38,014 nt of DNA from Acetobacteraceae bacterium (GCA_043785025.1 JAYVXQ010000289.1:1-38014), one strand, 5' to 3'. Positions 1 to 21,716 are shown, numbered from the stretch's first letter. Notes: a model not told the origin generated them from the letters alone. Made by a program: numbers and translations.

Positions 1-1079
1 CCTCCGGCGCGTCCGCCGCCGCGCGCTTGTTGCGAGGGTTGCGGCGACGCGGTCACGTTGTTCGGAGTGAATGCCATCTGCAACGTGTGCGCGATGTCGT
101 TGGCGTTGCTGTTTTGCAGATAATACGCGTGCCAGACGCGAACGGAACGGCGGCGTTCACGCTCGATCAGTCCGAACACGCGCTGCGCCGCTTCGATGTA
201 GCGCGGTTGGGACGATACGATCAGCACGGCGTTCATGCGCATCAGCGGAATGACCCGCACCAGCCCGCTCAGGCCAGCCCCGGCCTTGCCGCGAAACGAT
301 TCCGTCAGCGCGTCGGCGAAATCCTTGGCATTGCCCGAGGTGACCGGCAGCACGGCGTAAGATTGTCCCGCCAGCGCATCGATATCGAAGGACCGCACCA
401 GGTCGGCCATCGATTGCACCTGGCTCGGGTCGCCGCTGACCAGTAGGGTGTTGAGGCTGGTTTCGGCGGCGATCCGGGTGCCGGCACCCGCGACTGGTTG
501 CAGCACCTTGGCCAGATCCTCGGCCGAGACATAGCGTAACGGCACCACGATGCTGCCCGCCCCGCCCGCGGCCGCGGCGGGGACCACGCGATACAGCCCG
601 TCGCCCCGGATCAACACCGCACCCACGCTGCCCAACATGGTCTGCAAGGCCGGCAGCAACTGACGGCTGGACAACGGCCGCGCGGTGCGCAGGGTGACCG
701 TGCCCTTCACCGCCGGATCGATGCTGTAATTCGTCCGCAGCATCGCGCCGAGAATTTGCGCCACCGCTTCCCGCACATCGGTATCGGCGAAATCGAGCGA
801 ATATTGCTCGGCGCCGCCCGCCTCGGCCGCCTCGCTCGCCCCCGCGCGCGGCGTTCCGTAAATCACCTGCGCGGAGCGGCCGGAGGGTTGATACACGGGC
901 CCGTTGCTCCGGGCCGATCCGGCCGAGGGCCGGCCGTTGAAGATGGCGGGGGTGATCGAGCTGATGTTCAGCCGTTCCAGCGGCTCGCACCCGCTCAGCA
1001 GTAGCAGCGAGGCGGCGGCCAGACGCGCCGGCAATCGTTGGCGGGCCGGCATGATCGGCCAGTGTCGCGCGCGGGTCAT
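1..1079 (-). CDS. gspD: T2SS secretin GspD, N-terminal part (3' end beyond left edge); lipoprotein signal
   Basis: Not in ORF track because truncated. Manual translation from ATG 1079 (overlaps upstream TGA): MTRARHWPIMPARQRLPARLAAASLLLLSGC...EQYSLDFADTDVREAVAQILGAMLRTNYSIDPAVKGTVTLRTARPLS (secretin N0) ...VVPLRYVSAEDLAKVLQP...NTLLVSG...FDID (N1)...YYLQNSNANDIAHTL. Follows gspL-M-N. Confidence 0.92.
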   Translation of the reverse strand, partial: MTRARHWPIMPARQRLPARLAAASLLLLSGCEPLERLNISSITPAIFNGRPSAGSARSNGPVYQPSGRSAQVIYGTPRAGASEAAEAGGAEQYSLDFADTDVREAVAQILGAMLRTNYSIDPAVKGTVTLRTARPLSSRQLLPALQTMLGSVGAVLIRGDGLYRVVPAAAAGGAGSIVVPLRYVSAEDLAKVLQPVAGAGTRIAAETSLNTLLVSGDPSQVQSMADLVRSFDIDALAGQSYAVLPVTSGNAKDFADALTESFRGKAGAGLSGLVRVIPLMRMNAVLIVSSQPRYIEAAQRVFGLIERERRRSVRVWHAYYLQNSNANDIAHTLQMAFTPNNVTASPQPSQQARGGGRAG

Positions 1080-1627
1080 CGTCCGGTTCCTTGGGTGAAA
1101 ATCGTGTCGGGGGCGGAACCGGAGTCGCTTCCGGTTGGATTGGATCTGGGGGCAAGACCTGGACGAACCACGCGGTCGCCGGAGGGACCTGTCAGCGTGA
1201 CCTCGCCGGGCGCGATGGTCCGCACGCGCATGCCGCCGATGCTGTCGCCTTCGGATACCGCGCGGGATTTGCCGTCGGCGCCGATGAAGATCGCGCGGCG
1301 GTCGCGGGGGCCGACGATGACGGCGCTCAATCGCGGCATCTCATCGGCGCGCGGGCTTTCGGGTGCCGTGGGGCGCGTGGCGGATGGCGGACGCCGCTCG
1401 GGGCTGAACAGCGGGCGCGCGATCACGGCGGCGGCGACCAGACCCAGATCGTCGCGCTCCACAGGCACAACAGCGGTTGGGACACCGGTCGCTTCGCGCG
1501 GGGTGGATAAAGGCGCGGCCGTGCCCTCGGGGGCGTCGCGCCATCCCAGGATTTGCCACGACAACAGCGTCATCAACGCAATGGCGAGCCCGGTGGCGGC
1601 GATGGTCAACACGGTGGGCGCCTTCAT
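1076..1627 (-). CDS. T2SS protein N/C-like (XpsN/GspC-type, single TM plus HR-like domain)
   Basis: N-terminal TM, 'RPLFSPERRPP' motif, 'RLSAVIV...RAIF...VSEGDSIGGMRVRTIAPGEVTL'; sits between gspM and gspD as xpsN does. Confidence 0.75.
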   Translation of the reverse strand: MKAPTVLTIAATGLAIALMTLLSWQILGWRDAPEGTAAPLSTPREATGVPTAVVPVERDDLGLVAAAVIARPLFSPERRPPSATRPTAPESPRADEMPRLSAVIVGPRDRRAIFIGADGKSRAVSEGDSIGGMRVRTIAPGEVTLTGPSGDRVVRPGLAPRSNPTGSDSGSAPDTIFTQGTGR

Positions 1628-1637
1628 GCCGGCGGGC

Positions 1638-2207
1638 TCATGGTTGCGCCGCGCGCCAGGACATGACGGTCAGACCCGCCTCGACGGGTTGGGCTGGGTC
1701 TCGGCCAATGGGTGCGCGGATCTGGATCTCGTCGGTGACCATCGGCAGGTCGGATCGCGCCAAGGCCAGCAACAGGCCAACCAGAGCGGGGTACGGCGCG
1801 GTCACGGTCAGGCGGACGGCGATCGCCCGGAACTCCGCGTCCGGCTGTCCCGGCAGGATCTCCTGCGTGCCGACCCGCACCCCGGTCTGCCCCGCCAGCG
1901 CCTCGATCCGCTGTTGCAGCATCGCGGCCGCGAGCGCATCGGTCGCGCCGGTCAGCAGCACCACCGGCGTCGCGCCGTTGGCGCCCTCCGCGGCCGCCGC
2001 GACCTGTTGGCGCAACAGGGGCAGCGTATCGACCAGCGCCCCCATCCGGCGCGCGAGGGCCTGCTGGCGGCGCAGCATTTCGGCGCGCTCATCGTACCAA
2101 TCCCAGACCGGTTGGATCACCGCGAGCCACACGCACGCGAGGCCGATCGCGGCGATCGCCAGCGCGAGCATCTGTCCCCGGACACCGGTGGGTAGCGCGA
2201 CGCGCAT
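1638..2207 (-). CDS. gspM: T2SS inner-membrane platform protein GspM
   Basis: N-terminal TM, coiled coil, 'ALAAAMLQQRIEALA', ferredoxin-like C-terminus; directly downstream of gspL. Confidence 0.8.
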   Translation of the reverse strand: MRVALPTGVRGQMLALAIAAIGLACVWLAVIQPVWDWYDERAEMLRRQQALARRMGALVDTLPLLRQQVAAAAEGANGATPVVLLTGATDALAAAMLQQRIEALAGQTGVRVGTQEILPGQPDAEFRAIAVRLTVTAPYPALVGLLLALARSDLPMVTDEIQIRAPIGRDPAQPVEAGLTVMSWRAAQP

Positions 2208-2209
2208 GG

Positions 2210-3229
2210 TCAGGGTTCGAACCCGGCCTGGATGGTGAACACGTCCCGCCCGCTTTCGGCGCGCACCACCGGGGCGGCGAAAGATGGGTTTTTCACATGC
2301 GGTTCGGCCGCCATCGACGCGATCAACCGTGTCGCCGTCGCCGATTGCCCCTCCATCGTCAGCCGGTCCCGCCGCAGCGCGAGGCTGGTGAGCCAGGTGT
2401 CGTCGGGCAGCAGATCGGTCAGCACGCCCAAAAGGCGCGGGACCGCCGCCGCGCGCTCATGCGCCGCCGCGACCCGCCCCATGCCGGCCGATCCGGCCGC
2501 GATCCGCCGCCGCGTCGCATCGACCTGATCCATGGCGGGTTTGAGCACCGCCAACCGCTCCTCCACCGCCGCCAGCGCTAAAGACTGGCGCAGCAATGGG
2601 ACCGCCAGCACCGCCAGCGCCAGCAACGCGCAAACAACGAGGGCCGCGGAAAGCCCAGTACGGGACCGCGCCTGATCGTCGGATGCGATGGCGATGCGCG
2701 CGACGCCTCCGGCGGGATCCGGCGCCTCGACGGCGGAGGGCGCGATGCCCAAAGCGGCCAAATGCGCGAGCGGGGCGGCAGCCCATGATTTCGGCGCGAC
2801 CGCGATGTCGACGGTCAGCGCGCCGCTGGCCGGGTCGCGGGCGACGATCCGATGGTCGAACAGCACATCGGCCGCCGCGAAGGGGGTCAGCCGATCCATT
2901 TCATAGCGCAGCAGCCGGTCCAGATGCGCCGCCGCCGCCGCGGGCACGGTTTCCCGCCGCCGCAAGAACGCCCGCCGCAGCGCAATCACCACCGCTTCGC
3001 CCCGGCGGCGCTGGCCCATCGCGCGCGACCACGCGGCCCGGTCCGCGTCCGCGTCCAACGTGGCGATCGGGGTGAGCACCCCGCGCCGCCGCCGCGTGAC
3101 ACACCAGCCGTCGAGATCGCCGGAACTCAGGAGCATGGCGTCTTGCACGCGGCGGCTCCGCCAGCACACCACCGACACGCCGAGGCCGCGCATTTGATCG
3201 ACCCACCATGTTCCAAATTCGCGCAGCAT
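2210..3229 (-). CDS. gspL: T2SS protein GspL (PilN-domain)
   Basis: Start re-assigned to ATG 3229 (MLREFGTWW); 'LRYEMDRLTPFAAADVLFD', TM, C-terminal PilN-like 'LTDLLPDDTWLTSL...MEGQS'. Confidence 0.85.
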   Translation of the reverse strand: MLREFGTWWVDQMRGLGVSVVCWRSRRVQDAMLLSSGDLDGWCVTRRRRGVLTPIATLDADADRAAWSRAMGQRRRGEAVVIALRRAFLRRRETVPAAAAAHLDRLLRYEMDRLTPFAAADVLFDHRIVARDPASGALTVDIAVAPKSWAAAPLAHLAALGIAPSAVEAPDPAGGVARIAIASDDQARSRTGLSAALVVCALLALAVLAVPLLRQSLALAAVEERLAVLKPAMDQVDATRRRIAAGSAGMGRVAAAHERAAAVPRLLGVLTDLLPDDTWLTSLALRRDRLTMEGQSATATRLIASMAAEPHVKNPSFAAPVVRAESGRDVFTIQAGFEP

Positions 3230-3400: not shown

Positions 3401-3817
3401 TTATTCGCCGCCCGCCGACACCCGTCCCGTCAGCCAGTTCACCGTCAGGGTCCGCCGTGTAGAGCCCATGCTGACGACCACGATGCCGCCGGAGCCGCTG
3501 CCATCGGGCGCGAACCCGATCGTCTTCTGGGCTGGCATCGCCAGCAGGATGTCCGGAGCCGCGGCGATCCGGTCACCGCCGATCAGCAATCCATGTCCGT
3601 CCGGCGCGACGGCGACCGTGACCGGACGGCTTTCGGTCATCGCCCGGGATCGGGCCAGCCGCAACATCGCGCTGACCTGACCGGTCGCGCCGGACAGCGC
3701 GAGTCCATTGTCGCGGCGCGGACGAAATCCGGCACCGATCGTCAGCACCAGGCCGATGATCACCACCACGACGATCGTTTCGATCAACGTGAACCCGGAA
3801 TCGGGCGCGCGCCTCAT
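3401..3817 (-). CDS. gspH: Minor pseudopilin GspH/FimT-like
   Basis: Prepilin site SG|FTLIE, 'LRLARSRAM', 'IGFAPDGSGSGG', 'VNWLTGRV'. Confidence 0.88.
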   Translation of the reverse strand: MRRAPDSGFTLIETIVVVVIIGLVLTIGAGFRPRRDNGLALSGATGQVSAMLRLARSRAMTESRPVTVAVAPDGHGLLIGGDRIAAAPDILLAMPAQKTIGFAPDGSGSGGIVVVSMGSTRRTLTVNWLTGRVSAGGE

Positions 3818-5027
3818 TGCGCCAGATCGTTCAGGCTCAACATCGCCAGCAGCAGCGAGGCGACGATCCCGGCGATGATGGCACCCATCGCGATGGTGAT
3901 CGCGGGCGTCAGCAACGCGACCAGGCGTTGCGTCGCGGTGCGCACCTGATCCTCGTGGATCGCCGCCGCGCGCAGCGCCATGGGGCCGAGTTGCGCCGTC
4001 TCCTCCCCCAGCCGCAGCAAATGGATCAGTCTGGGCGGAAACAATCCGGACTCGCCCAACGGGGTGGACAGGCCCGCGCCGGATTTGGCGACCGCGGTCG
4101 CGTGATCGACCGCGGCGACGCCGGCCTCATTGCCCAGTACGTCGCGGGATATGGCCAGAGCCGGGATCAGGGAGACGCCGTTGTCGAGCAGACTGCCCAA
4201 GGTGCGCGCCAGCCGCGCCGCCATGATCTCACGCGACAATCGGCCAAGGATGGGGAGGCGGAGTTTGACGCGGTCGAAGGCGAGGCGCGGACCGGGACGG
4301 CGCAGCGCCACCCGCGCCACGACGAATGCCAGCAGAATGACCAGCAAGGCGGCCAGCCCGTGCCGCGACACGGCGTCTCCGGCGTCGATCAGGAATCGTG
4401 TCGACGCCGGCAGCACGGCGCCGCTTTGTTCAAATAACGGGACGAATTGCGGCAGCACCTGGGTCAGCAGCAGCACGATCGCGCCCACCGCGGCGATCAA
4501 CAGCAGGATCGGATAGATCATCGCCGAGCGGACGGTGACGGCCAAAGCGCGCTCCCGCTCCAGCAAATCCGCCAGGCGGTCGAGGGTTGCCGCCAGCGTT
4601 CCCCCCGCCTCGCCCGAGCGGACCAGGCCGACGTAAAGGCGGGAGAAACTCTCGGGCCGTTTCGCCAAAGCGGCGGCGAGCGCGGTGCCGTCGCGCACGT
4701 CGTCGCGCACCGCCGTCATGACACGGGCCACGCGGCGGGAGGGCGCGGTTTCCACCAGGAAGCGCAAGGCGCGATCGAGGTCCTGACCGGCGCCCAACAT
4801 CGTCGCGAGTTCGCGGGTCACATCGGCGACTTCCTGACGCGACAACGCCTCCCGCCCGCCGAACGGCAGCGATAAAGAGGCCGCCATACCGGTTTTGACC
4901 GGTGCCACCGACAGCGGCAGCGCGCCATCGCGCTGAATGCGCGCGAGCACGGCGGCTTCATCGGGCGCGTCCATCTCCCCGTCGATGGCATGGCCGCCGC
5001 GATCGATGGCTTTGTAGCGCCACAGGC

Positions 5028-5031
<4 letters not shown>
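3814..5031 (-). CDS. gspF: T2SS inner-membrane platform protein GspF
   Basis: Start ATG 5031 (MSLWRYKAID, GGAG upstream, ATGA overlap with gspE stop); 'TRELATMLGAG', 'SGEAGGTL', 'SAMIYP', second T2SSF repeat 'LGEETAQL'. Confidence 0.93.
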
Positions 5032-6755
<1,724 letters not shown>

Positions 6756-6945: not shown

Positions 6946-7208
6946 TTCACCACGGAGTGATCGGAGGATCACGGAGGAATGTGATCTGGCTGATGTGACG
7001 GGTGATGGATTGCCGGGTTGGCCCGGGAACCGTCGCGCGGAGGTCATTCAGGGACGGTTCGCGATCGATCCGTTTTTGGTGACTGGGTTTAGGCTGGTGC
7101 TGGCGCGCGATCGTTTCAGGTTGGTTGCGACCTGAAGCGTGATTGGTCCAATGAGATGGCGGGGCTTGAGTGGTTGGGTGCGAGGCGGCGCGGGGTGATT
7201 TTAATGTC

Positions 7209-7235
7209 TACCTGGGTTTCGGAGAAATCCGGGTA
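7209..7235 (+). repeat. REP-like hairpin copy 1 (TACCTGGGTTTC-GGA-GAAATCCGGGTA)
   Basis: 12-bp stem with two G.T pairs; homologous to 7279-7309 and 34399-34427. Confidence 0.75.
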
Positions 7236-7278
7236 TACGCGCCCAGGGTTGGTGTGGCGGCGGGCGCAAAACCAGAAG

Positions 7279-7309
7279 GATATCCGGATTTCGGAGAGAT
7301 CCGGGTATC
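7279..7309 (+). repeat. REP-like hairpin copy 2 (GATATCCGGATTTC-GGA-GAGATCCGGGTATC)
   Basis: 14-bp stem with two G.T pairs and the same GGA loop. Confidence 0.75.
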
Positions 7310-7536
7310 GCGTGCCGCGGTCTCGCTTTTTGGCGCACGATATTAAGCGGCAGCCATGATGGCAGGCGTTGTTTGTTTCGATATATTTATGATAAAATCG
7401 ACGGTCCGAGCTTATCTTTCGTGGGCCGGCCCAATTATATTTTTTCGTGGATATGACGATCAATGATCGGTTCGCGGTGAAATGGTTCGCGCCAGGACCT
7501 ATCTGGGAGCCCGCCAGCGACGGGCCCCCGAAATCG

Positions 7537-9753
7537 TTATCCGCCACCGAACATCGGCAACGACGTCACCCGTTTACCGGTCAACGCGAAATACGCGTTC
7601 GCCAAAGCGGGCGCCGCGGGCGGCAAACCGGGCTCGCCCACTCCGCCCGGCGGGTTCGCGGTCGATCCGATCACCTGCACGTTGATCGCGGGGGCGTCGC
7701 GCATGCGCATCATGCGGAACGTGTCGAAATTCTGCTGATCGGCGACCCCGTTCTGCCAGGTGATCTTGCCCCATAGCGCCGTCGCGAGGCCCTGGATGAT
7801 CGAACTTTGCATCTGTGCCGCGACCGAGTCAGGGTTCACCGTCGTGCCGCAATCCACCGCGCAATCCACCCGGACGACCTGAACCTGGCCCGCCGCGTTG
7901 GTCGCGATTTCCACGACCTCGGCGACATAGCTTCCGAAACTGAACCGGCAGGCGATCCCGCGCGCATGACCCGCGGCCGGTTTGGTGCCCCATCCCGCCA
8001 TCGCCGCGGCTTTCGCCAGCACACCCAATAGCCGCGGGCTGCTGGTCAGCAGTTTCTGGCGATAGGCCAGCGGGTCCATGCCGGCCACCGCCGCCGCCTC
8101 ATCGATCGCGGTTTCCACCACGAAGGTGTTCAGCGAATTGCCAACCGAACGCCAGAACCCGACCGGCACCGGCGTCGTCAGGATGCCATACTCCACGAAC
8201 CGCGCGCCCATCGTGTAAGGCAAACCGATCGCGCCATCCGTGCTTTGCGAGTCGAGCCCGCCCGCCACGGCCGCGGGAAACACCCGTGCGAGGATCGAGG
8301 GCGACACGATCCGGTTGTTCCACCCGACGATGTCGCCTGACCCGTTCAGACCAACCGTCAGTTTCGATATCGCCATCGGGCGGTAGAAATCATGGGTGAG
8401 TTCTTCTTCCCGCGACCAGGTCAGCTTCACCGGCTGGCCGATCTGTTTGGCGATCGTCACGGCCTGGACGACGTAATCCGTCTCGCCCTTGCGGCCAAGC
8501 CCGCCGCCCATGAACATCGAATGCACCGTCACCTGCGCCGCGGTCAGACCGGTCAGCGCCATCGCTTTCGCCTGGCAGGCATCGGGCGCTTGCGTCGGCA
8601 CCCAGATCTCGCAACTGGTCGCGGTGACCGCGGCGGTGCAGGTCATCACCTCCATCGTCGCATGCGCGGTGAAGGGCAGGGAGTAGGTGCGGCTGATGGT
8701 ATTCTTGGCCAGCGCCATGCCCGCCGCCAGGTCGCCGATTTTCTCGGCTTGCGTCACCGGGCCGTTCGCCATGATGGCGTTGGCGGCGGCGCGCATCGCC
8801 TGGCTGTCCTGAGCCGCGCGTGTCGCGGGCGGAATGGTCCATGACACCGCCAGGCCGCGGGCAAGTTGAAACGCTTTCCAGGTACTCTCGGTCGAGACGA
8901 CCGCGACGGCGTTGCCGAGATTGACCACCGCCATCGCGCCCGCGGGCACGGCGGGCGTCGCGGCGACCGTGCCACCGAATACTGGGCACTGCTTGATGGC
9001 GGCGAAGACCATGCCCGGCACCATGGCGTCGATGCCGAATTTGGCGTTGCCGTTCACTTTCAGCGCGATATCCGGCCGTTTCACCGGCAGGCCGATCAGG
9101 GAATAGCCGCTCGCGGCGGACAGGATCGGCGGGCTGGCGGGGGGCGTCAGGCCGGCGGCGATGGGTGCCAGGGCCCCATACGTCAACGAACGGCCGGTCG
9201 ACACGCTGGTGACGACGCCATTGGCGGCTTTCAGGCCCGAGGCAGGCTCATTCAACTGGATCGCGGCCGCGGCGATCAGCATCTCGCGCGCCGTCGCGCC
9301 GATCTTCAACAGGGGCTGGAACCACGACCGGATATTATTGCTGCCGCCGGTGAAGCGGCGATGCGACACCGGGTGATCGTATTTCGGCGCCGCGTCGGGC
9401 TGCGCGGTGGTGACGCGGAACCAGGCGACTTTCAGCTCCTCGGCCAGCACCTGCGCCATGCCGGAGATGATCCCCTGGCCCATTTCGGCGCCCGCGCCAT
9501 AGATTTTCACGGATTCATCGGAGCCGATGACAACCCAGACATTGACGGTCGCGGTGGTGACCGGCGCCGCCGCCACCGTCGCGCCAGGGGCCGCGCCCCC
9601 GGTCATCGCACCCTGATGCGCCGCGCCAAGCGGTCCGACGGCCAAAGCCTCGGGCGGGCGTCCAAAACCAACCACCAGTCCGCCCGCGGCGGCGCCGGTG
9701 AATAATGCGCGACGGCCCAAACGCGACGCCGAGCCAATCATCATGTCATTCAT
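7537..9753 (-). CDS. iorB: Molybdopterin-binding oxidoreductase large subunit, isoquinoline 1-oxidoreductase beta (IorB)-like, Tat signal
   Basis: GRRALFTGAAAGGLVVG Tat-like leader; 'EMGQGI', 'TGGS', 'HATME', 'MGGGLGRK', 'WSREE', 'GFWRSVG', 'VNPDSVAAQ', 'GGVGEPG...PALANA'. Substrate unknown. Confidence 0.9.
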   Translation of the reverse strand: MNDMMIGSASRLGRRALFTGAAAGGLVVGFGRPPEALAVGPLGAAHQGAMTGGAAPGATVAAAPVTTATVNVWVVIGSDESVKIYGAGAEMGQGIISGMAQVLAEELKVAWFRVTTAQPDAAPKYDHPVSHRRFTGGSNNIRSWFQPLLKIGATAREMLIAAAAIQLNEPASGLKAANGVVTSVSTGRSLTYGALAPIAAGLTPPASPPILSAASGYSLIGLPVKRPDIALKVNGNAKFGIDAMVPGMVFAAIKQCPVFGGTVAATPAVPAGAMAVVNLGNAVAVVSTESTWKAFQLARGLAVSWTIPPATRAAQDSQAMRAAANAIMANGPVTQAEKIGDLAAGMALAKNTISRTYSLPFTAHATMEVMTCTAAVTATSCEIWVPTQAPDACQAKAMALTGLTAAQVTVHSMFMGGGLGRKGETDYVVQAVTIAKQIGQPVKLTWSREEELTHDFYRPMAISKLTVGLNGSGDIVGWNNRIVSPSILARVFPAAVAGGLDSQSTDGAIGLPYTMGARFVEYGILTTPVPVGFWRSVGNSLNTFVVETAIDEAAAVAGMDPLAYRQKLLTSSPRLLGVLAKAAAMAGWGTKPAAGHARGIACRFSFGSYVAEVVEIATNAAGQVQVVRVDCAVDCGTTVNPDSVAAQMQSSIIQGLATALWGKITWQNGVADQQNFDTFRMMRMRDAPAINVQVIGSTANPPGGVGEPGLPPAAPALANAYFALTGKRVTSLPMFGGG

Positions 9754-9772
9754 ATCGCTTAATCTTTCTTAT

Positions 9773-10853: not shown

Positions 10854-10894
10854 ACCGGGCCCCCATGAACTGGGCCCCCATGAACTGGGCCCAG
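10850..10894 (+). repeat. 3x15-bp tandem repeat at the gspI stop / gspJ start junction
   Basis: GTGAACCGGGCCCCC ATGAACTGGGCCCCC ATGAACTGGGCCCAG. Confidence 0.9.
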
Positions 10895-12261: not shown

Positions 12262-12303
12262 CGATTTCCGGGGTTATGCCACCAGCGGGTTCGAAACGAA
12301 GAA

Positions 12304-13044: not shown

Positions 13045-13089
13045 TTTCGTTCTCCCGATCAAATATTAAAAAACTGTTCCATTACGGAC

Positions 13090-13116
13090 TACGCGCGGAA
13101 CCAGGGTTTGGATGCA
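13090..13116 (-). promoter_or_regulatory. Putative ECF sigma promoter TGCATCCA-N15-CGTA upstream of the PEP-CTERM gene
   Basis: Both boxes and the spacing are identical to 15150-15176. Confidence 0.6.
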
Positions 13117-13145
13117 CTCATAAAACATTAACGTTCGTCCATGTT

Positions 13146-13928: not shown

Positions 13929-13929
13929 C

Positions 13930-14499
13930 TCAATCCACCGGGGCGAGACGCAGCGGCGCGACGATGATCGCGGGCCATGGCGCATGACCGGGATCGGCGG
14001 GGATGATCCGCACGCGCACGAGCCGCGGATTGCCCGCCATCGACCAAAGGGGGCGCCAGATGTCCGGCCCATCGCCGCCGCGATAGCTGAGCTCCAAACC
14101 GGCGACCTCGCGCGCCAGCACGATCGGGGCGGCCTCCGGTTCCTGAAAGCGCAGCAGCAGGGTTTTGCCGCTGACCACGAGTTCCGCCGTCACCGCGCCG
14201 CCCGGACCGCCCAGACCATCGCGGCGCGCGGCGGCGGGCAACCGTGTACGCAGAACGATCCGGGTTTGCGAGGCCAGAGGCGATAAGGGCCGCGCCCGCG
14301 TGCCCGGATCCATATGCGCCAGCACCTCGCGGATCGAAGCCGCCGCCGCGCGCAAATCGGCGCCATCATGGCGCAGGCTGGTCTGGCGGGCGACCGCGCG
14401 CAGGCCGAGACGTTGTGTCTGTGAAATCAACACCAGCACCAGCGACGCGACGGTGATGGCGATCAGCACCTCGATCAGCGTGAAGCCGCGCGCTGTCAT
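13930..14499 (-). CDS. gspJ: Minor pseudopilin GspJ (cassette 2)
   Basis: RG|FTLIEVL; C-terminal 'WRPLW....PRLVRVRI.......WPAIIVAP'. Confidence 0.83.
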   Translation of the reverse strand: MTARGFTLIEVLIAITVASLVLVLISQTQRLGLRAVARQTSLRHDGADLRAAAASIREVLAHMDPGTRARPLSPLASQTRIVLRTRLPAAARRDGLGGPGGAVTAELVVSGKTLLLRFQEPEAAPIVLAREVAGLELSYRGGDGPDIWRPLWSMAGNPRLVRVRIIPADPGHAPWPAIIVAPLRLAPVD

Positions 14500-14951
14500 G
14501 GTCCGTCCCGTTCCGGTGCCAGAAACTGGCTGACCAGGGTGACGCTTTGACCGGTGTCCCAGAAAACCCTGACGCTGACCTCAAACAACGCCGTATTCAG
14601 CGCATAGACCCCGCCGTTCAGCCGCAGCCTCCGGAACGGCGGGGCGACGCCCAACCGGGTGACGCTGACCCGCCAGGAATAAACCGCGTCATCCTGTCCG
14701 GACCGTGTCCCCTCCGTCAGCGACCGCGCCCCGGCGAATTCCGCCATATGCGATTGCGCCCGCGCCACCGCCCCGGTCATGTCGCGTTCCCGCCGCGCCG
14801 CGCCAAGCCCGAGATCGATCGCGCGGATCAGCGTGGCCAGAACCAGGGCCGCGAGCACCAGCGCCACCAGAGCTTCCAACAACGAAAATCCTTGATCGCC
14901 GCGCCATCCGCGATCCCGTGCTCGGATCAAACGCTGGCGGGCGCGGTGCAT
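14496..14951 (-). CDS. gspI: Minor pseudopilin GspI (cassette 2)
   Basis: QG|FSLLEAL; 'AVARAQSHM', 'YSWRVSV', 'LFEVSVRVFW'. Exact start uncertain. Confidence 0.8.
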   Translation of the reverse strand: MHRARQRLIRARDRGWRGDQGFSLLEALVALVLAALVLATLIRAIDLGLGAARRERDMTGAVARAQSHMAEFAGARSLTEGTRSGQDDAVYSWRVSVTRLGVAPPFRRLRLNGGVYALNTALFEVSVRVFWDTGQSVTLVSQFLAPERDGP

Positions 14952-15149
14952 CGCCGAAGTCCTTTATCCCGGAGCGTGTCGTTCCGGCGGGAGCGATCAT
15001 AAGCTGGTCGCGCCCACCGGTGGAACCCGGGAGTTTGGTTTCGATAGTTTGTCGAACATTTCAAAAATAACCAATTTCCAGGGCTTTGTGGCGCAGGGAG
15101 GCCTGACGCCCATCGGTTCATCGCCGCGTTAATTATTTTTCAGTCCGGA

Positions 15150-15176
15150 TGCATCCATTCGTGTGCCCGGACCGTA
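15150..15176 (+). promoter_or_regulatory. Putative ECF sigma promoter TGCATCCA-N15-CGTA upstream of the DUF4331 operon
   Basis: 46 nt upstream of the start codon, after an AT-rich tract; both boxes identical to 13090-13116. Confidence 0.6.
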
Positions 15177-15222
15177 TAGCTAACAGGTTTGCCAGGAAAC
15201 GAACCCTTACGAGGAACAGACA

Positions 15223-16677
15223 ATGTCAAAAACCAAACGCATCCTGAAAATCGCCACCGCCGTCGCGTTGCTTCCCGCCGCCGTCCTGGCGTCGAGCCAT
15301 CGGGAGGCCCCTTTGATCGGCGGCACACCGCGTTTGGATGGCACCGATTTCTATATGTTCCGAAGTTATGAGGCTGGCCGGTCGGCGTTCGTCACCATGA
15401 TCGCCAATTATATTCCGTTGCAGGATCCCTATGGCGGGCCAAACTTCTTTCCGCTCGACACCAACGCCGTGTATGACATCAACATCGACAACACCGGCTC
15501 GGCGAAACCGAATATGACGTTCCGGTTTCGCGCGAAGAAAGTCATTCAGGGGCTGACGGTCAGCGTCGGTGGCAAATCGGTCGCGGTTCCCGTCACCCAG
15601 CTGGGTCAGATCTCCAACAGCAATACGCCGCCGGGTACCCAGAATGTTGTCGAAACATTCACCATGTCGCTGGTGACGTATAATAACGGCACCGCGACGG
15701 AGACGCCGATCACCAACGCCACGTCCGGCGCCGCGGTTTTCGCCAAACCCGTCGATAATATCGGCGTGAAGACCATTCCCGACTACCCCGGATATGCCGC
15801 GAAATTCATTTATTCGATCAATATCCCGGGCTGCGCGACGCCTGGGAAAGTCTTTGTCGGACAGCGTAAGGAAAGCTTCTTCGTCAATCTGGGCGAAACC
15901 TTCGATCTGATCAATTACGCCAACCCGGTCGGCGAGCAATTCGCCAATAGCAAACGCAACGATCTCGCGGACAAGAATATCACGTCGCTGGCCGTTGAGG
16001 CGCCGATTTCCTGCCTTACCGCCGGAAATGATCCCGTGATCGCGGCCTGGACGACATCCTCCACGGTGGTGAAAAATGGCGCGGGGGTCACGACATTTTT
16101 GCAAACGTCGCGTCTCGGCAATCCGCTGGTGAATGAGGTTGTGATCGGCCTCGCCGACAAGGACAAGTTCAACGCCAGCCAGCCGGTCAATGACGGCGCC
16201 GCGTTCCTGACCTATGTCACGAACCCAACGTTACCGGCGATCATCGAAATTCTGTTTGGCGCGCCCGCGCCGACGTTGGTTCCCCGGTCCGACCTGGTCG
16301 CGGTGTTCCTCACGGGTCTGAACGGGCTGAACGCGCCCGCCAATTTGCAAACTCCGGGCGAGGAAATGCGGTTGAACACCGGCATCGCGCCGGTCGCGAA
16401 AGGCGCGCAGAATCGGTTGGGCGTGATCGCGAATGACGCCGCTGGCTATCCGAACGGGCGGCGTCCCGGCGATGACGTGGTCGATATCAGCCTGCGCGTG
16501 GTGATGGGCCGCCTGCTGGTCAATCCGCCTTTGTTCGGTACCCCGTCGCAGGCGCCCGCCGGTAACCTCGACTTCACCGACGGCGCTTACGGCGACTCGA
16601 CTTACTTCGACGCGGCGTTTCCTTACTTGCTCAACCCGATCCCGGCGTCCCCGCAACCGACCAGCCCGCCGCAATAA
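15223..16677 (+). CDS. Secreted DUF4331-family protein
   Basis: GAGGA RBS; signal peptide AVLA|SSHREAP; motifs 'DGTDFYMFRSYE', 'GGPNFF', 'FVGQRKESFFVNLG', 'SRLGNPLVNE', 'GYPNGRRPGDDVVDI', 'FPYL'. Confidence 0.88.
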   Translation: MSKTKRILKIATAVALLPAAVLASSHREAPLIGGTPRLDGTDFYMFRSYEAGRSAFVTMIANYIPLQDPYGGPNFFPLDTNAVYDINIDNTGSAKPNMTFRFRAKKVIQGLTVSVGGKSVAVPVTQLGQISNSNTPPGTQNVVETFTMSLVTYNNGTATETPITNATSGAAVFAKPVDNIGVKTIPDYPGYAAKFIYSINIPGCATPGKVFVGQRKESFFVNLGETFDLINYANPVGEQFANSKRNDLADKNITSLAVEAPISCLTAGNDPVIAAWTTSSTVVKNGAGVTTFLQTSRLGNPLVNEVVIGLADKDKFNASQPVNDGAAFLTYVTNPTLPAIIEILFGAPAPTLVPRSDLVAVFLTGLNGLNAPANLQTPGEEMRLNTGIAPVAKGAQNRLGVIANDAAGYPNGRRPGDDVVDISLRVVMGRLLVNPPLFGTPSQAPAGNLDFTDGAYGDSTYFDAAFPYLLNPIPASPQPTSPPQ

Positions 16678-16743
16678 ATTCGTGATGGGGGCCGGCTTGT
16701 GACCATGGTCTGGCTCCCCTTCAGGCGGCGCGCGAAACAGACC

Positions 16744-17925
16744 ATGCCGTGGTGGATCGCCGCGGCATGGTTCATCGTGTTCACGCTTCCACTCCATGCC
16801 GCTCCCCGCGTTCCCCCGTCCGGCGATACAATCGTGGAACGGTTGCCGGACGGCGACCTCGCATCGCGAGACCGCCGGTTGCGCGCGACCGAGTTGGCGC
16901 GCGACCCCACCAATCTCACTTTGGCCTTGCGCGTCGCCCGGTTCGACATCGGCGAAGGACAGCGCCGTGCCGATCCCCGCTTCCTGGGGCGCGCCGAGGC
17001 CGCTCTCTCCCCCTGGATCGCGTTGCCTCGACCGCCGTCGCCCGTGCTGCTGCTGCGCGGGGTGCTGCGCCAGAGCGCGCATGATTTCGACGCCGCCCTG
17101 AGCGATCTGGACACCGTGATCGCCGACAAAGCCGCCGATGCCGCACTCAAAACACAGGCCCGACTGACCCGCGCCGTGGTTCATCAGGTGCGGGGCGATT
17201 ACGATCTCGCCACGGCGGATTGCGCCGCCGCGGCGACAATGGTGCCGCGCCTCGCCGCGTTGGCCTGCCTCGCCGGTTCCGCCAGTCTCACGGGACGGGC
17301 GCGTGCCACGATGGCCGCGCTGGAACGCTTCGCTTTGGCCGGATCCGATCAAGACGACCAATCCTCCCGCGTCTGGGCTCTGACCGTTCTGGGGGAGGTC
17401 GCGGGCCGTCTCGACGAGCCAGGCCTCGCGGATCGCGCGTTCCTCGCGGCGCGGGGATTGGCGCCCGATGACACGTATCTGCTGGCGGCGCATGCTGACC
17501 TCATGCTGGACACCGGACGCGTCGCCGAGGTCATTTCGCTTCTGACCAGCCGCGCGCGGGTCGATCCGCTGCTGCTGCGCCTGATCGAGGCGCATCGCCA
17601 ACAGGGAACCGCCGATCCGGTCCTGGAATCCGACCTCGCGCTGCGTTTTGAAACCAGCCGCCGCCGGGGTGACGCGACGCATCAGCGCGAGGAAGCCCGG
17701 TTCATGCTGCATGTCCGCGACAACACGGCCGAGGCGCTGCGCCTGGCCGAGGCCAACTGGCGGGTCCAGCGGGAGCCCGCCGATGCCCGCATCCTGCTGG
17801 AGGCCGCCGCGGCCGGTCATGCCCCGGATCGCGCCGCGCCCGTCGTCGCCTGGATGGACAAAAATCATGTCGAGGAACGCGGTTTGCAATCCCGGATCGC
17901 GCGGCTTCGGGATGGACATCCATGA
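16744..17925 (+). CDS. Exported TPR-like helical repeat protein (DUF4331-associated)
   Basis: Signal peptide LHA|APRVP; Ala/Leu-rich TPR-like helices, 'DPRFLGRAEAAL', 'HDFDAALSDL', 'NWRVQREPADA'. Start 16699 (GTG) or 16744. Confidence 0.75.
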   Translation: MPWWIAAAWFIVFTLPLHAAPRVPPSGDTIVERLPDGDLASRDRRLRATELARDPTNLTLALRVARFDIGEGQRRADPRFLGRAEAALSPWIALPRPPSPVLLLRGVLRQSAHDFDAALSDLDTVIADKAADAALKTQARLTRAVVHQVRGDYDLATADCAAAATMVPRLAALACLAGSASLTGRARATMAALERFALAGSDQDDQSSRVWALTVLGEVAGRLDEPGLADRAFLAARGLAPDDTYLLAAHADLMLDTGRVAEVISLLTSRARVDPLLLRLIEAHRQQGTADPVLESDLALRFETSRRRGDATHQREEARFMLHVRDNTAEALRLAEANWRVQREPADARILLEAAAAGHAPDRAAPVVAWMDKNHVEERGLQSRIARLRDGHP

Positions 17926-19049
17926 CCCGCGGTGGCATGGCGGTTTTGTTCGCCATCCTGCTGTGGGCCGGAGCCGCGTCGGCGCATGGATCCAGCACGA
18001 GCTATGTCGTCATCAGCGCGTCGAACAGCGACGTCGCGGTGACCTGGTCGCTGTCGTTGCGCGACCTGGAGGACGCCATCGGCATCGACCAGAACGGCGA
18101 TGGCATCCTCACATGGGATGAGGTGCGATCTCAGAAAACCAGGATCGACGCTTACGCGCTGACGCGTCTGCGGATCTCGACGGCGGGGGCCACGTGCATG
18201 CCGCGCGATCCGCCGGCCCATGCGATCGACGATCTGGGGGATGGCGCGTATTTGGTGCTGAATTTTCAACTGCGGTGTCCGGTGCCGATCGGACAACTGG
18301 ACGTGACCTATGACGCGCTGTTCGAGGTTGATCCCCAGCATCGCGGGCTGGTCAATGTCACGCTGAATGGCATAGCCCAGGGCGCGGCGATGTCGCCGGG
18401 GGGACGGTCAGTGGGGTTTGGGGAGGAGCCGAGTACAGCGGCTTTCGCGATGGCGTTCTTCACGGGCGGTGTCTCCCATCTTTTGGGCGGCGCGGACCAT
18501 GTGCTGTTCATCGTCGTCCTGCTCGCCCCCGCGCTGCTACGCCCCCGCGCCGTCGACTCCTCTTGGGCGCGCCTGATCGAGGTGGTTCGGCTGCTGACCG
18601 CCTTCACGGTGGCGCATGCCTGCGCGCTGACCCTCGCCGTGCTCGGTGTGGTCGTGGTTCCCGCCCGTCTCGCCGAGGCCGCGATCGCGCTCACCATTCT
18701 GGTCACCGCATTGGACAATATCTGGCCGTTCCTGCCTGGGCGGCGATGGATCCTCGCGCTTGGGTTCGGGCTGATCCATGGGCTTGGCGTCGCCGGCGGA
18801 TTGGGGCCGCTGCATCTTCCGCCGATAATGCTCGCTCTGGCGCTGGTCGCGTTCAATCTGGGGTTGGAGGCGGTGCAGATCGCCATCGCCCTGGTGGCGA
18901 CGCCGGCGGGGATCGTTTTGCGCGCCGCGCATGGCGCGTCGTGGCGGCTGTTGCCGCTGCTGTCCGGCGCGGCGGCCTGTGCCGCGCTGATATGGCTGAT
19001 ACAGCGGACGGGATACTCCTGGTCCGCGTTGGCGGGCGGTCTGTTTTAA
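17922..19049 (+). CDS. HupE/UreJ-like protein (long type, periplasmic domain plus TM domain)
   Basis: Signal ASA|H; 'GVSHLLGGADHVLF', 'AFTVAHAC', 'FGLIHGLG', 'FNLGLEAVQ'; EF-hand-like DQNGDGILTWDE. Confidence 0.85.
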   Translation: MTRGGMAVLFAILLWAGAASAHGSSTSYVVISASNSDVAVTWSLSLRDLEDAIGIDQNGDGILTWDEVRSQKTRIDAYALTRLRISTAGATCMPRDPPAHAIDDLGDGAYLVLNFQLRCPVPIGQLDVTYDALFEVDPQHRGLVNVTLNGIAQGAAMSPGGRSVGFGEEPSTAAFAMAFFTGGVSHLLGGADHVLFIVVLLAPALLRPRAVDSSWARLIEVVRLLTAFTVAHACALTLAVLGVVVVPARLAEAAIALTILVTALDNIWPFLPGRRWILALGFGLIHGLGVAGGLGPLHLPPIMLALALVAFNLGLEAVQIAIALVATPAGIVLRAAHGASWRLLPLLSGAAACAALIWLIQRTGYSWSALAGGLF

Positions 19050-19060
19050 GGAGCGATCGC

Positions 19061-19651
19061 ATGCGAAAAATCCTGATCACACTGGCGCTGGCGTGTCTCG
19101 CGACACCGGCTTTGGCGCATTCCGGCGGCGATGTGCAGGTTGGCTTCACGGCGGGATTTCTGCACCCGCTCACGGGCCTCGATCACCTCGTCGCCATGGT
19201 CGCCGTGGGCTTATGGGGCGCGCAACTTGGCAAGCCGGAGATCTGGCTGCTGCCCATCGCGTTCCCATTGGTGATGGCGTTTGGCGGGCTGCTCGGGATC
19301 ATGCGGATCGCGTTGCCGCTGTCGGAGCCATTGATCGCCGCCTCCGCGATTGTGCTTGGGCTGGTGGTGGTCATGCAGGCGCGCTGGCCGATGGCGGCGG
19401 CGATCGCTTTGGTGTCGGTGTTCGCGATCTTTCACGGCTATGCGCATGGGCGGGAATTGCCGGACGCCGCCAGCCCCGAGGCCTATGCGATCGGGTTCGT
19501 CATGGCGACCGGCATGTTGCACGGCGTTGGCATTCTGATCGGCACGTTGCAGCGGCTGCGCTGGGGTTCGTATGTCGTGAGAGGTCTGGGTTTCGGGATC
19601 TCGGCGATTGGGGTGGTGTTCCTTTACGGTCAGATGATCGCGCCCGCCTGA
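19061..19651 (+). CDS. hupE: HupE/UreJ family Ni/Co permease
   Basis: AAGGAG RBS; ALA|H; 'GFLHPLTGLDHLVAMVAVGLW', 'FHGYAHG', 'LHGVG'. Confidence 0.92.
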   Translation: MRKILITLALACLATPALAHSGGDVQVGFTAGFLHPLTGLDHLVAMVAVGLWGAQLGKPEIWLLPIAFPLVMAFGGLLGIMRIALPLSEPLIAASAIVLGLVVVMQARWPMAAAIALVSVFAIFHGYAHGRELPDAASPEAYAIGFVMATGMLHGVGILIGTLQRLRWGSYVVRGLGFGISAIGVVFLYGQMIAPA

Positions 19652-20262
19652 TGCGCAAGCCTCTCTGGGCGCTCACCCTCGCCTTCATGTGGCCTCGCGT
19701 GGTCTGGGCTCATGGGCTATCGGCAGAGGCCGGGGATTTTTACGCGGCGGCGCAATCGCTGCTGACCGGACCTGAGGATATTCTGACCTGGCTGGCGTTG
19801 GGACTGTTCGCGGGTCTGCACGCTATGCGGCGCGCGGGCTGGAGCGCCGAATGTTTCGCGGCCGGTTTGGCGTTTGGTTTGCTGGCCGCGCGTGCCGGAT
19901 GGTTGCCCACCGCCCGTCCGGGGATCGATCTGATCGCGCCGTTGGTGTGCGGGATGCTGCTGGCTCTGGCGGTGCGATTGCCCGCACTGGCGCTTTGGGC
20001 GATCGCCGTCGCGTCGGGGCTTGTCCGCGGCTGGCATACCGGGATGGATACGTTGGCGCGGCCGGATGGGCTGGCTTTGGCCAGCGGGCTGGGGTTGGCG
20101 GGATATCTTTCCGTGCTGAGCGCGGTCGCGGCCACTGGCTGGTTTTTGAGCCAAAGCGCGGGCTGGCGCCTCATCGCGGTGCGCGCCGCCGGCAGTTGGA
20201 TCGCGGCGATCGCGATGATGACCGGGGGGTTGGCGTTCCGCCGATTGATGCAGGGGGTTTAG
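19651..20262 (+). CDS. Divergent HupE/UreJ-like membrane protein
   Basis: TGATG coupling; VWA|HG; same layout as HupE but His motifs eroded ('QSLLTGPEDIL', 'VRGWHTG'); C-terminal 'AVRAAGSWIAAI'. Confidence 0.7.
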   Translation: MRKPLWALTLAFMWPRVVWAHGLSAEAGDFYAAAQSLLTGPEDILTWLALGLFAGLHAMRRAGWSAECFAAGLAFGLLAARAGWLPTARPGIDLIAPLVCGMLLALAVRLPALALWAIAVASGLVRGWHTGMDTLARPDGLALASGLGLAGYLSVLSAVAATGWFLSQSAGWRLIAVRAAGSWIAAIAMMTGGLAFRRLMQGV

Positions 20263-20366
20263 CGCGGTTTCCGATCGCGTTGGCTCACGGAACCCGCTCT
20301 AAGTATTTGTTTTGGCGAGCATCTTTATCCGATCAGGTGTGGCCACCTGATCGGATGATGCTTTAG
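20259..20366. repeat. ~105-bp palindromic intergenic element (BRU-RS/RIME-like)
   Basis: Starts TTAGCGCGGTTTCCG, ends ATGCTTTAG; internal perfect 13-bp hairpin ATCCGATCAGGTG-TGGC-CACCTGATCGGAT (20327-20356); between convergent genes and supplies the upstream TAG. Confidence 0.55.
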
Positions 20367-20393
20367 CGAGGCGGTCGCGACCGCGTGAAGACG

Positions 20394-21170
20394 TCACCCG
20401 CCCATCCAATCGTCGAGCGATCCGCCATATAACCACAGTAACCAGGCCGCCATCGCCAAAAAGGGTCCAAACGGAATCGCCGTCGCGGCCGTCATCCGCC
20501 GCCCCACCAGCGCCGCCGCTCCCGCCGCGGCCAGGCCAAGCGACGCGGCGAGAAAAAGGGTGAGCGGCAACAGCGCGAGCCCGAGCCAGGCCCCGATTGC
20601 GGCGAATAATTTCGGATCGCCGCCGCCCAACCCATCGCGGCCTCTCAGGCGGCGATACAGCCAGGCGACGCCGGTCAGGCTTGTGAAGGCGACGACGGCG
20701 GCGAGCGTGCGATCGGACAGCGCGGCGGGATCGGCCACATACGTCGCGATCAGACCGATGACCAGCAGAGGCAGCGTCAAGGCGTCCGGCAACAGCATCG
20801 TTCTGCTATCGATCCAGGACAATGTCAGGAGCAACCAGCCCAGTACGCAGGAGGGCCAAAGATCGGCCTCGGGCACCGTGAGGCCAACCCAGAAAGCCAC
20901 CGCCATGGCGCCGAGTTCGACGGCGGGGGCGAAAAAGCCGATGGGTTCGTGGCAGTAACGGCATTGGCCGCGCGTCAGAACGAAACTCAGCAACGGCACG
21001 AGATCCCGCGCGGCGAGGCGGTGACCGCAATGGTCGCACGCCGAACGCGCGAACACGACCGGACGATTTTCCGGCAGACGTTGGATCAGGACGCCCATGA
21101 AACTACCGATCACGGGCGCGACGGCAACGGCGGGCAGCCACGCGGCAAATGAGTTGAAAACAGCGTCCAC
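20394..21170 (-). CDS. gspO: Prepilin peptidase/N-methyltransferase (A24)
   Basis: 'GSFMGVLIQRLP', CDHC...CRYC Zn motif, catalytic Asp motifs 'WIDSRTMLLPD' and 'GLGGGDPKL', 'IPFGPFL'. Confidence 0.93.
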   Translation of the reverse strand: MDAVFNSFAAWLPAVAVAPVIGSFMGVLIQRLPENRPVVFARSACDHCGHRLAARDLVPLLSFVLTRGQCRYCHEPIGFFAPAVELGAMAVAFWVGLTVPEADLWPSCVLGWLLLTLSWIDSRTMLLPDALTLPLLVIGLIATYVADPAALSDRTLAAVVAFTSLTGVAWLYRRLRGRDGLGGGDPKLFAAIGAWLGLALLPLTLFLAASLGLAAAGAAALVGRRMTAATAIPFGPFLAMAAWLLWLYGGSLDDWMGG

Positions 21171-21290
21171 GACGTTGTCTCACCACGGCGCACCTCGCTC
21201 CGCAAGCCCGTCGGGACTTACGGACTCCGGGTCAGATCGGCTTATATCGCGGGGGTGGGACGCGAAGGTCCCAACAGCCGAGGGAGCATC

Positions 21291-21716
21291 ATGAAACGTC
21301 CTCCAATCCGCATGAACCGGTCACGCGAGCGTGGTTTCACGCTGCTGGAAATTCTGGTGGTGATCGCGATTCTCGGTCTGTTGATCGGCCTGGTGGCGCC
21401 CGCCGCCTTGCGGCAATTGGGTGGGGCGCGCGTGTCGGTCACCAAACAATCGATCGAGCGGATCGGCGCGGTGCTGGACATGTATAAACTGGACGTCGGC
21501 ACCTACCCCACCGCCGAGCAGGGGTTGCGCGCGTTGGTGGAGCGGCCCGCGGGAATGCCCGGTTGGAATGGGCCGTATTTGAAGGGGGACGTGCCGGCGG
21601 ACCCGTGGAGCCATCCCTATTCCTATCGTTTCCCCTCCAACCGTCCGGCGCGGGATTACGATTTGTGTTCGGCGGGTCCACCGGGAACGGCGGCGGAGGC
21701 GATCTGCAACCCCTGA
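21291..21716 (+). CDS. gspG: Major pseudopilin GspG
   Basis: GGGAG RBS; RG|FTLLEILVVIAILGLL; 'LDMYKLDVGTYPTAEQGLRALV', 'WNGPYL', 'PADPW'. Start 21291 or 21312. Confidence 0.93.
   Translation: MKRPPIRMNRSRERGFTLLEILVVIAILGLLIGLVAPAALRQLGGARVSVTKQSIERIGAVLDMYKLDVGTYPTAEQGLRALVERPAGMPGWNGPYLKGDVPADPWSHPYSYRFPSNRPARDYDLCSAGPPGTAAEAICNP

Follow-up and report, generated by a model that had tools for sequence, protein, structure and literature searches.

Two divergent GspI/J/K sets on a single type II secretion machine of an Acetobacteraceae bacterium: candidate alternative tips for neighbouring exported proteins

The DNA analysed here, referred to as the window, is the whole 38,014-nt contig C289 (JAYVXQ010000289.1:1-38014) of an Acetobacteraceae bacterium (GCA_043785025.1; genome G000, 4.36 Mb in 562 contigs, 88% complete), a placement to which the names of homologues also point. 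It carries one type II secretion system (T2SS) with single copies of the core genes and two divergent sets of gspI, gspJ and gspK, which may encode alternative pseudopilus tips for the exported proteins of neighbouring genes. This reading, drawn from sequence comparisons, is tentative, with nearly even chances of being correct. Gene order was established by profile searches (Pfam and NCBIfam) together with our own gene caller, and leader peptides and twin-arginine motifs were assigned by eye and with our own heuristic, not with SignalP.

Two tip sets and a single machine

GspI, GspJ and GspK form the trimer at the tip of the pseudopilus (PMC6211770, PMC13533445), and assembly of the fibre is licensed by I-J-K (PMC13533445). 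In the window, set 1 lies on the plus strand and includes gspI1 (10464–10853; PF07963, NF047828), gspJ1 (10865–11482) and gspK1 (11479–12261; PF21687). The divergent set 2 lies on the minus strand and includes gspK2 (13146–13928), gspJ2 (13930–14499; PF07963) and gspI2 (14496–14951; PF07963, NF047828), the start of which is uncertain. Duplication is confined to I, J and K; gspG, gspH, gspO, gspE, gspF, gspL and gspM are single. The minor pseudopilins with a prepilin motif are one H and two each of I, J and K.

The tip paralogues differ considerably, sharing 31–39% identity (34% for GspJ2 and GspJ1, 31% for GspK2 and GspK1). GspK1 is 51–53% identical to copies in the related genomes G070 and G069. 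No close orthologue of set 2 was found in 400 genomes of the family or in the protein collection; the best other match of GspJ2 among those genomes is 42% identical, and the next homologues of GspK2 are 33–36% identical. GspK2 gave no Pfam match, and its identity rests on the 31% to GspK1 and on homologues named GspK. A profile of the window GspK proteins and those of outlying sets in relatives (see below) matched 5vtm_X (E 0.004) and 3ci0_K (E 0.14) weakly. The prepilin motifs are intact and, as judged by alignment, GspK lacks Glu5.

The confirmed gene order is D'-C-M-L-H-F-E, iorB-iorA, I1-J1-K1, a PEP-CTERM gene, K2-J2-I2, DUF4331-(408 aa)-HupE x3, O and G. The first block, on the minus strand, comprises the N-terminal half of the secretin gene gspD (3–1052; PF21305, PF03958), a gspC/N-like gene (1076–1627) that precedes gspD as in relatives and gave weak NF041515 and TIGR03021 matches and none in Pfam, gspM (1638–2207; NF040576 above cut-off), gspL (2210–3229; PF05137; start from the gene caller), gspH (3401–3817; PF12019), gspF (3814–5031; PF00482, TIGR02120) and the ATPase gene gspE with an MshEN domain (5028–6755; PF00437, PF05157). 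Within gspE, an inverted repeat of 35 nt with 94% complementarity and a 34-nt spacer is found at 5222–5325. The prepilin peptidase gene gspO (20394–21170, minus strand; PF06750, PF01478) and the major pseudopilin gene gspG (21312–21716, plus strand; TIGR01710 above cut-off) lie beyond the inserts.

An earlier note on this DNA described all core T2SS genes as present and split into blocks separated by inserts. The gene positions bear out the split, and the T2SS hallmarks GspE, GspF, GspL/GspM, GspG and prepilin peptidase are all present by Pfam and NCBIfam profiles. Completeness is not fully shown because the contig begins within gspD, leaving the N0/N domains, and the secretin half did not turn up elsewhere in the 88%-complete assembly, whose sole PF00263 match belongs to a secretin of 32% identity on contig C82. 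The note also took the T2SS to be a dedicated, secondary system. When the assembly was searched with the window proteins by tblastn, no second GspE, GspF, GspG, GspL, GspM or GspO was found at its 88% completeness, and all six prepilin-motif matches of the assembly fall inside the window. Hence, the window T2SS is the only one found in the assembly and is not a secondary system of the Hxc kind. No PilT-like retraction ATPase was found among the GspE homologues of the assembly.

Tip sets and their neighbours in related genomes

GspG homologues are present in 43 of 76 other genomes of the genus. DNA was taken from 40 gspG places, from their other sides and further places, and from 40 gspJ/gspE places, giving with the window and metagenome contig L178 a total of 92 stretches. 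The family order is E-F-H-I-J-L-M-C-D-K (Kozakia plasmid L345, Acidisoma plasmid L346 and G069:C381), and in the window I and J are absent from their family position between gspH and gspL. The Kozakia plasmid (NZ_CP014677.1) has two facing T2SS operons, each with its own gspK and gspD, which have one gspG and one lytic transglycosylase gene in common; the first of them comes after a levansucrase gene. Genus T2SS clusters hold inserts other than those of the window, coding for phosphoesterases, a twin-arginine ferritin-like protein, beta-propellers, a Hint-domain protein and a lytic transglycosylase. PstS-like genes flank two T2SS loci of the family (L339, L090).

Tip set 1 adjoins iorB (7537–9753, minus strand; PF02738, PF20256), an aldH-like gene for a molybdopterin large subunit with a twin-arginine leader, and iorA (9862–10311, minus strand; PF01799, PF00111) for a 2Fe-2S small subunit without leader. 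A head-to-head arrangement of iorAB with gspI-J, as in the window, is found in G069 (L252), G070 (L253) and L178, which agrees with the link between IorAB and the T2SS that had been proposed. The linkage is kept although GspJ has diverged to 47–51% and, in G070, gspK has been relocated to the far side of iorB. IorB matches at E<=1e-100 occur in 35 of the 76 genus genomes, and 75–77% identity is reached only in G069 and G070. The core cluster of G070 is free of I/J/K over 34 kb; the two GspJ and two GspK found in this genome all belong to outlying sets that adjoin iorAB or a multicopper oxidase gene. On these grounds, tip set 1 likely has IorB as its cargo. A cytochrome subunit gene is missing next to iorB in the window, L252, L253 and L178, and no porin partner was found nearby.

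The iorA-iorB spacer of the window (9773–9885) contains tandem 15-nt repeats (TTACTGACCAACGCC-type), and the spacer of relatives is only ~15–70 nt. The IorB orthologues of G069 (L252:1862-4150) and G070 (L253:7544-9772) have a Thr/Gly-rich C-terminal tail that is missing from the window copy, and the G070 iorB includes one in-frame TAG.

Across the genus, further J/K or I/J/K sets outside the core genes are mostly located beside genes for exported proteins. One type pairs gspK and gspJ with a gene for an HbpS-like protein (K<-HbpS->J), at 10 loci in nine genomes (L258, L261-L266 and L273-L275; e.g. L261:6340-8687). A divergent gspK is present in 8/10 of these loci and J only in 2/10, and gspI was not found in the fetched DNA. 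Nine aligned HbpS-like proteins (PF03928) are 84–95% identical to the first of them, compared with 49–94% for GspJ and 56–93% for GspK. Other neighbours of I/J/K genes are a 774-aa phosphoesterase (G067, G017), a propeller protein (G065), a Hint protein (G010), a PEP-CTERM protein with a di-haem peroxidase (G069) and a propeller-phosphoesterase of ~980 aa, found in G067 and in another genus (L338). At least eight exported families, unrelated to one another, were found repeatedly next to I/J/K.

The earlier observation that genes for exported proteins lie in T2SS loci is upheld by an enrichment in the genus. By the leader-peptide heuristic, 33/75 genes beside I/J/K were positive, compared with 79/606 distant genes and 498/3506 genes of G000. 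In this count truncated genes and multi-pass proteins were not scored positive, several clear HbpS leaders were missed, and the genomes are kin.

In the GspJ tree (63 rows, those <170 aa excluded; bootstrap unsettled at 0.980), three clades correspond to neighbours, namely iorAB-linked (99/91; including GspJ1 with GspJ of G069 and G070), HbpS-linked (100/99) and the pair beside the 774-aa phosphoesterase (100/97), all outside the large core clade. The GspK tree (FastTree, 63 rows, those <215 aa excluded) agrees for the iorAB (100) and HbpS (100) clades, not for the phosphoesterase pair. Grouping by neighbour and not by genome points to long co-inheritance, as distinct from co-evolution.

Together, these data suggest how the window locus could operate. 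The twin-arginine leader of IorB would carry IorAB via the Tat pathway into the periplasm, where the I1-J1-K1 tip, having primed the GspG pseudopilus on the shared H/E/F/L/M/C platform, would select IorAB and push it out through GspD. Tip set 2 would do likewise for its own partner. Set 2 is flanked by the PEP-CTERM gene (downstream) and by the DUF4331 gene (head-to-head), and its partner may be either of these proteins or the product of a gene elsewhere. A broader proposal is that Acetobacteraceae-type systems use exchangeable I/J/K tips as modular substrate-selecting adaptors, each selecting a substrate of its own and passed on together with it (molybdoenzyme, HbpS-like haem protein, phosphoesterases, oxidases, PEP-CTERM proteins), with set 2 exporting DUF4331 or the PEP-CTERM protein; this is possible and is put forward with less confidence, as roughly a one-in-three prospect.

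Several observations weigh against alternative tips. All the evidence is genomic, and secretion of IorAB is a prediction. Of the 74 IorB loci from metagenomes, L178 (the closest one) alone has gsp genes; the G069 orthologue of GspK1 is on another contig (C555), followed by an aldolase-like gene; and the closest solved relative of IorB is the large subunit of an aldehyde dehydrogenase (8gy3_C, E 6e-45), a periplasmic enzyme. Tip set 2 has no close relative that would point to its partner, and J2 and K2 form long branches in trees of which that of GspJ has the unsettled bootstrap mentioned above. The I/J/K sets at G007:C631, G060:C164 and L342 have no exported immediate neighbour, and genes beside other gsp genes are also enriched in leaders (44/143). 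Finally, the cassettes are kin, each clade may represent one event, and plain co-inheritance would give the same clustering.

The likeliest alternative, though itself rather improbable, is that the neighbouring genes are coupled by regulation without selectivity. The I/J/K sets would then be remnants of complete cargo-plus-T2SS clusters, retained since co-expression of fibre priming with the cargo would start secretion at the time of cargo synthesis, and any tip would serve any substrate. Such complete clusters exist in the family (with levansucrase on the Kozakia plasmid, and at G082:C5, G017:C8 and G067:C117), many cassettes stand head-to-head with the cargo gene across one common intergenic region, and licensing of fibre assembly by I-J-K fits this view. 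However, a core gspJ is also present in 7/9 of the genomes with HbpS cassettes, so that a second priming set would be redundant there, and the tip paralogues have diverged to 31–39% identity yet remain beside the same neighbour.

It is improbable that the neighbours merely hitch-hike, i.e. that T2SS loci are hot spots of rearrangement and insertion where periplasmic or unrelated genes are kept by descent alone. In its favour, close relatives differ widely in the gene order of their T2SS loci, the inserted block of the window has multicopy repeats on both sides, transposases adjoin some cassettes (L266, L342), and one event could account for each cargo clade. Against this stand the recurrence of the unrelated exported families beside I/J/K and the persistence of iorAB next to a GspJ diverged to 47–51%, even where gspK has moved across iorB.

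Still less probable is display at the tip, with the neighbour staying bound at the pseudopilus end in the manner of PilY1 and acting there as an enzyme or adhesin of the cell surface. For Tad and type IVa pili, a single machine has been shown to work with alternative minor-pilin sets (PMC12075869, PMC13759059), and beta-propeller proteins come after gspK in many genus clusters. In a PilY1-type system the last beta-strand is missing from PilK/GspK and comes from the partner. However, GspK1, GspK2 and the HbpS-linked GspK retain their own C-terminal hydrophobic-x-Trp strand motif in the alignment and would need no partner strand (PMC13533445), which makes retention less likely than release, and the assembly has no PilT-like ATPase among its GspE homologues.

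The DUF4331 operon, the PEP-CTERM gene and the contig

The operon next to tip set 2 is on the plus strand. It begins with the gene for a DUF4331 exported protein (15223–16677; PF14224; model pLDDT 93) with a predicted mature start Ser-Ser-His. A His at position 3 of a mature chain with a free N-terminus constitutes the ATCUN motif, which binds Cu or Ni. The predicted mature start is SSH in 78/80 and ASH in 2/80 DUF4331 loci, preceded by Ala in 77, and is found in 111/120 database proteins, the nine misses beginning downstream of the motif; these loci and proteins are close relatives selected by similarity. No solved relative of the DUF4331 fold was found by sequence, and Foldseek gave nothing at E<=0.001. 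The best VIA-align match, 7uwu (Z 7.9, rmsd 4.7, 199 aligned), is in the range of common arrangements and is no proof of a new fold.

The second gene encodes an exported 408-aa protein (16699–17925), a conserved partner of DUF4331 with a homologue in 45/80 loci. It had been labelled a TPR protein; no Pfam or NCBIfam profile matched it, and that label is an inference only. A fusion of DUF4331 with a TPR-like part in G084 was set aside since the long ORF looks frameshifted in a degraded locus.

The third gene (17922–19049; PF13795, weak PF20420) codes for a long, anglerase-type HupE protein with a predicted beta-sandwich starting at His1 and a helical HupE/UreJ-2 permease domain in the membrane. 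It was detected in 41/80 DUF4331 loci, which come from many phyla. His1 is invariant in 35 aligned rows, the cleavage site being judged by eye. No PDB match was found by sequence; the best structural match of the N-terminal domain is 9gce (Z 11.9, rmsd 2.8, 131 aligned). Two further HupE/UreJ permease genes follow, at 19061–19651 (PF04955, E 4e-58) and, divergent in sequence, at 19651–20262 (PF04955, E 7e-08). The three HupE/UreJ proteins had been counted among the cargo, which they cannot be because they are multi-pass inner-membrane permeases.

The window protein resembles Ang-1-HupE/UreJ-2 (PMC12537917; PDB 9GCE) in its His1, beta-sandwich and C-terminal PF13795 permease, whereas its identity to Ang-1 is only 12–15%. 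Ang-1 is described as catching metal on the periplasmic side of an inner-membrane permease (Franco Cairo et al. 2025, PMC12537917), and Cu/Ni binding at the N-terminal His is shown only for RbAng-1a and MmAng-2a (PMC12537917). The main text of that paper contains no occurrence of DUF4331, TPR or ATCUN; its supplements may list neighbouring families. Our literature search found no paper naming 'DUF4331' or 'PF14224'. By these comparisons, the operon products are predicted to use their Ser-Ser-His and His1 termini for periplasmic Cu/Ni binding and to import the metal via the HupE/UreJ permeases, so the earlier suggestion of a metal-capture link finds support. The operon is a widespread, mobile and separate module with a probable role in metal capture in the cell envelope and represents a large unstudied family with a predicted Cu/Ni-binding terminus that is not special to the window locus.

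Among other occurrences, the fetched flanks include gsp genes at 3/80 DUF4331 loci (L098, L104, L120), 0/14 family loci and 0/3 genus loci; at least two loci are common to more than one of these sets, whose counts should not be added up. Three further DUF4331 loci have a lone weak pilin match. In two Polaromonas loci (L104, L120), the DUF4331 gene comes immediately after a T2SS operon of the same orientation, and in L098 the DUF4331 operon faces a gspD cluster; these are possible independent links to a T2SS. In other genera, DUF4331 operons adjoin a pair that presumably encodes TonB-receptor-like and NikR-like proteins, as labelled from the appearance of the sequences (L323:11207-13965), or an ECF/anti-sigma pair (L325:13283-14498).

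The PEP-CTERM gene of the window (12304–13044, minus strand; PF07589) is one of 19 in the genome, and an exosortase gene (PF09721) is located on C246. No homologue of its product at E<=1e-8 was found in the 76 other genus genomes.

A predicted ECF promoter, TGCATCC-N16-CGTA, is present ~45 nt before the starts of both the PEP-CTERM gene (13090–13116, minus strand) and the DUF4331 gene (15150–15176, plus strand). The shorter motif ATCC-N16-CGTA occurs three times in the window versus 0.74 expected (three or more in 4/100 shuffles), the third match being inside a gene, and was counted by hand within 300 nt upstream of DUF4331 at 52/80 loci. There are 89 matches genome-wide, and the argument therefore rests on the position of the motif. 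Contig C496 carries an ECF sigma-RskA-fasciclin-like locus (L344:619-2744) with a divergent ATCC-N16-CGTA pair at its 5' end (C496:5034-5081), and its sigma factor is the probable regulator of the DUF4331 operon. RskA regulates ECF18/19 (PMC7826278), and a SigK/RskA-type ECF sigma factor is predicted to switch on both the DUF4331 operon and the PEP-CTERM gene. Of the co-regulation originally proposed for the whole locus, only that of these two inserts is predicted here because no exact motif precedes iorA, either I/J/K set, gspE or gspG, where matches with one mismatch are at chance level.

A twin-arginine ferritin-like gene (PF13668) lies inside genus T2SS clusters at L063, L064, L069, L074, L075, L077 and L080; this insert (e.g. 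L069:10878-11872) has its own ATCC-N16-CGTA promoter in at least seven genus T2SS loci. On the Acidisoma plasmid L346, a ferritin-like gene is located between gspK and gspG.

As for the inserts being one co-inherited system, the data speak otherwise: the T2SS clusters of relatives carry other inserts, and DUF4331 operons mostly lack gsp neighbours. What the earlier note named as counter-evidence, orthologous clusters that lack the inserts or carry unrelated ones, holds for the DUF4331/HupE and PEP-CTERM genes, as no homologue of DUF4331, HupE or the PEP-CTERM protein was found in the other gsp-bearing stretches from the genus; iorAB follows gspI/J only. A single conserved unit of all inserts is thereby ruled out. 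Hence, the combination of inserts and T2SS is mostly a local assembly, and the new part is the duplication of exactly gspI/J/K with a likely pairing to cargo. It is very improbable that a dedicated secondary T2SS exports all enclosed proteins as a co-regulated system for metal capture and surface display: the promoter shared by the PEP-CTERM and DUF4331 genes, the head-to-head placement of DUF4331 and tip set 2 in the geometry of other cargo and the three DUF4331 loci that adjoin T2SS genes are outweighed by the lack of a second T2SS in the assembly, of gsp neighbours at 14/14 family and 3/3 genus DUF4331 loci and of the exact ECF motif before iorA, the I/J/K sets and gspE/G, and by the inner-membrane nature of the HupE/UreJ permeases.

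Sequencing runs that contain window DNA are labelled sediment, freshwater sediment or plain metagenome and belong to two studies. A single unitig covers positions 10863–20285 in X1/X2, the runs from which the window DNA may originate; in X3/X4, from the second study, all 30 window bins are covered by shorter pieces. No listed assembly piece bridges ~7.24–7.28 kb, ~20.29–20.39 kb or 9857–10007. The junctions at ~7.25 and ~20.3 kb sit in two different ~100-bp interspersed multicopy repeats (7200–7310 and 20260–20360), and a single shared repeat bounding the inserted block at both ends was ruled out. The two families are unrelated, BLAST finds each of them >100 times in the genome, often where contigs end, and the ends of the copy at 7200–7310 are inverted. 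It is improbable that a misjoin brought T2SS pieces together by chance, and the order at the unbridged junctions is without independent support.

Scans of the window detected sigma-70 promoters and terminators only at chance level, and an Rfam search of it gave no match. Further along, a 1470-aa hybrid of CheB-like, histidine kinase, receiver and FixJ-like parts is encoded at 27735–32147. At the contig end (36394–38012), a CopI-like cupredoxin and a CopA-type multicopper oxidase form a copper-resistance pair ~16 kb from the DUF4331 operon.

Comparison with known secretion systems and pili

The window machine is an ordinary T2SS of the family type. Its gene set and order, E-F-H-(I-J)-L-M-C/N-D, are those of the Kozakia plasmid cluster and of the Lsd T2SS of Gluconacetobacter diazotrophicus, with which it also has in common an adjoining substrate gene, a putative one in the window. 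The Lsd T2SS is required for export of LsdA (PMC2765452). The Lsd and Kozakia operons include one internal I/J/K set, whereas the window has two divergent sets outside and lacks I/J in that place. The GspI-GspJ-GspK (XcpVWX) tip (PDB 3CI0, 5VTM) has been described as a single set per system, in contrast to the two of the window. In the literature searched, which leaves most subscription journals outside its coverage, we found no account of T2SS tip sets that are paralogous and linked to cargo.

The Pseudomonas Hxc system with LapA is a T2SS located beside its substrate. Hxc is a complete second system, whereas the window T2SS is the only one found in its assembly. How a T2SS recognises folded substrates that have no common linear signal is a long-standing question, and contact between the tip and the substrate LasB was reportedly described by Douzi in 2011. 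Natural pairs of a divergent tip trimer and an exported neighbour in one genome make T2SS substrate recognition directly testable, and if the alternative-tip reading is true, T2SS substrates would be predictable from gene order. Shewanella DmsAB is a molybdoenzyme exported by a T2SS (PMC9048795). DmsA belongs to the DMSO-reductase family, whereas IorB is of the xanthine-oxidase family and has no cytochrome or porin partner nearby; selection of IorAB by set 1 would suggest that a molybdoenzyme of the latter family acts outside the cell.

A further likeness is with the interchangeable tips of Tad and type IVa pili (the Kil Tad and cyanobacterial kind), where several paralogous three-gene tip clusters serve one assembly machine and give it specialised functions (PMC12075869, PMC13759059). 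The window likewise combines more than one paralogous minor-pilin set with a single major pilin and a single machine (two I/J/K, one G/H/E/F/O), and so does G070. The Tad and type IVa tips act by their own domains on surface pili, whereas the machine of the window is a T2SS with small tips, and what varies is the exported enzyme, a separate protein encoded by the adjoining gene. Alternative I/J/K tips, if confirmed, would extend the principle of interchangeable tips from these pili to protein secretion.

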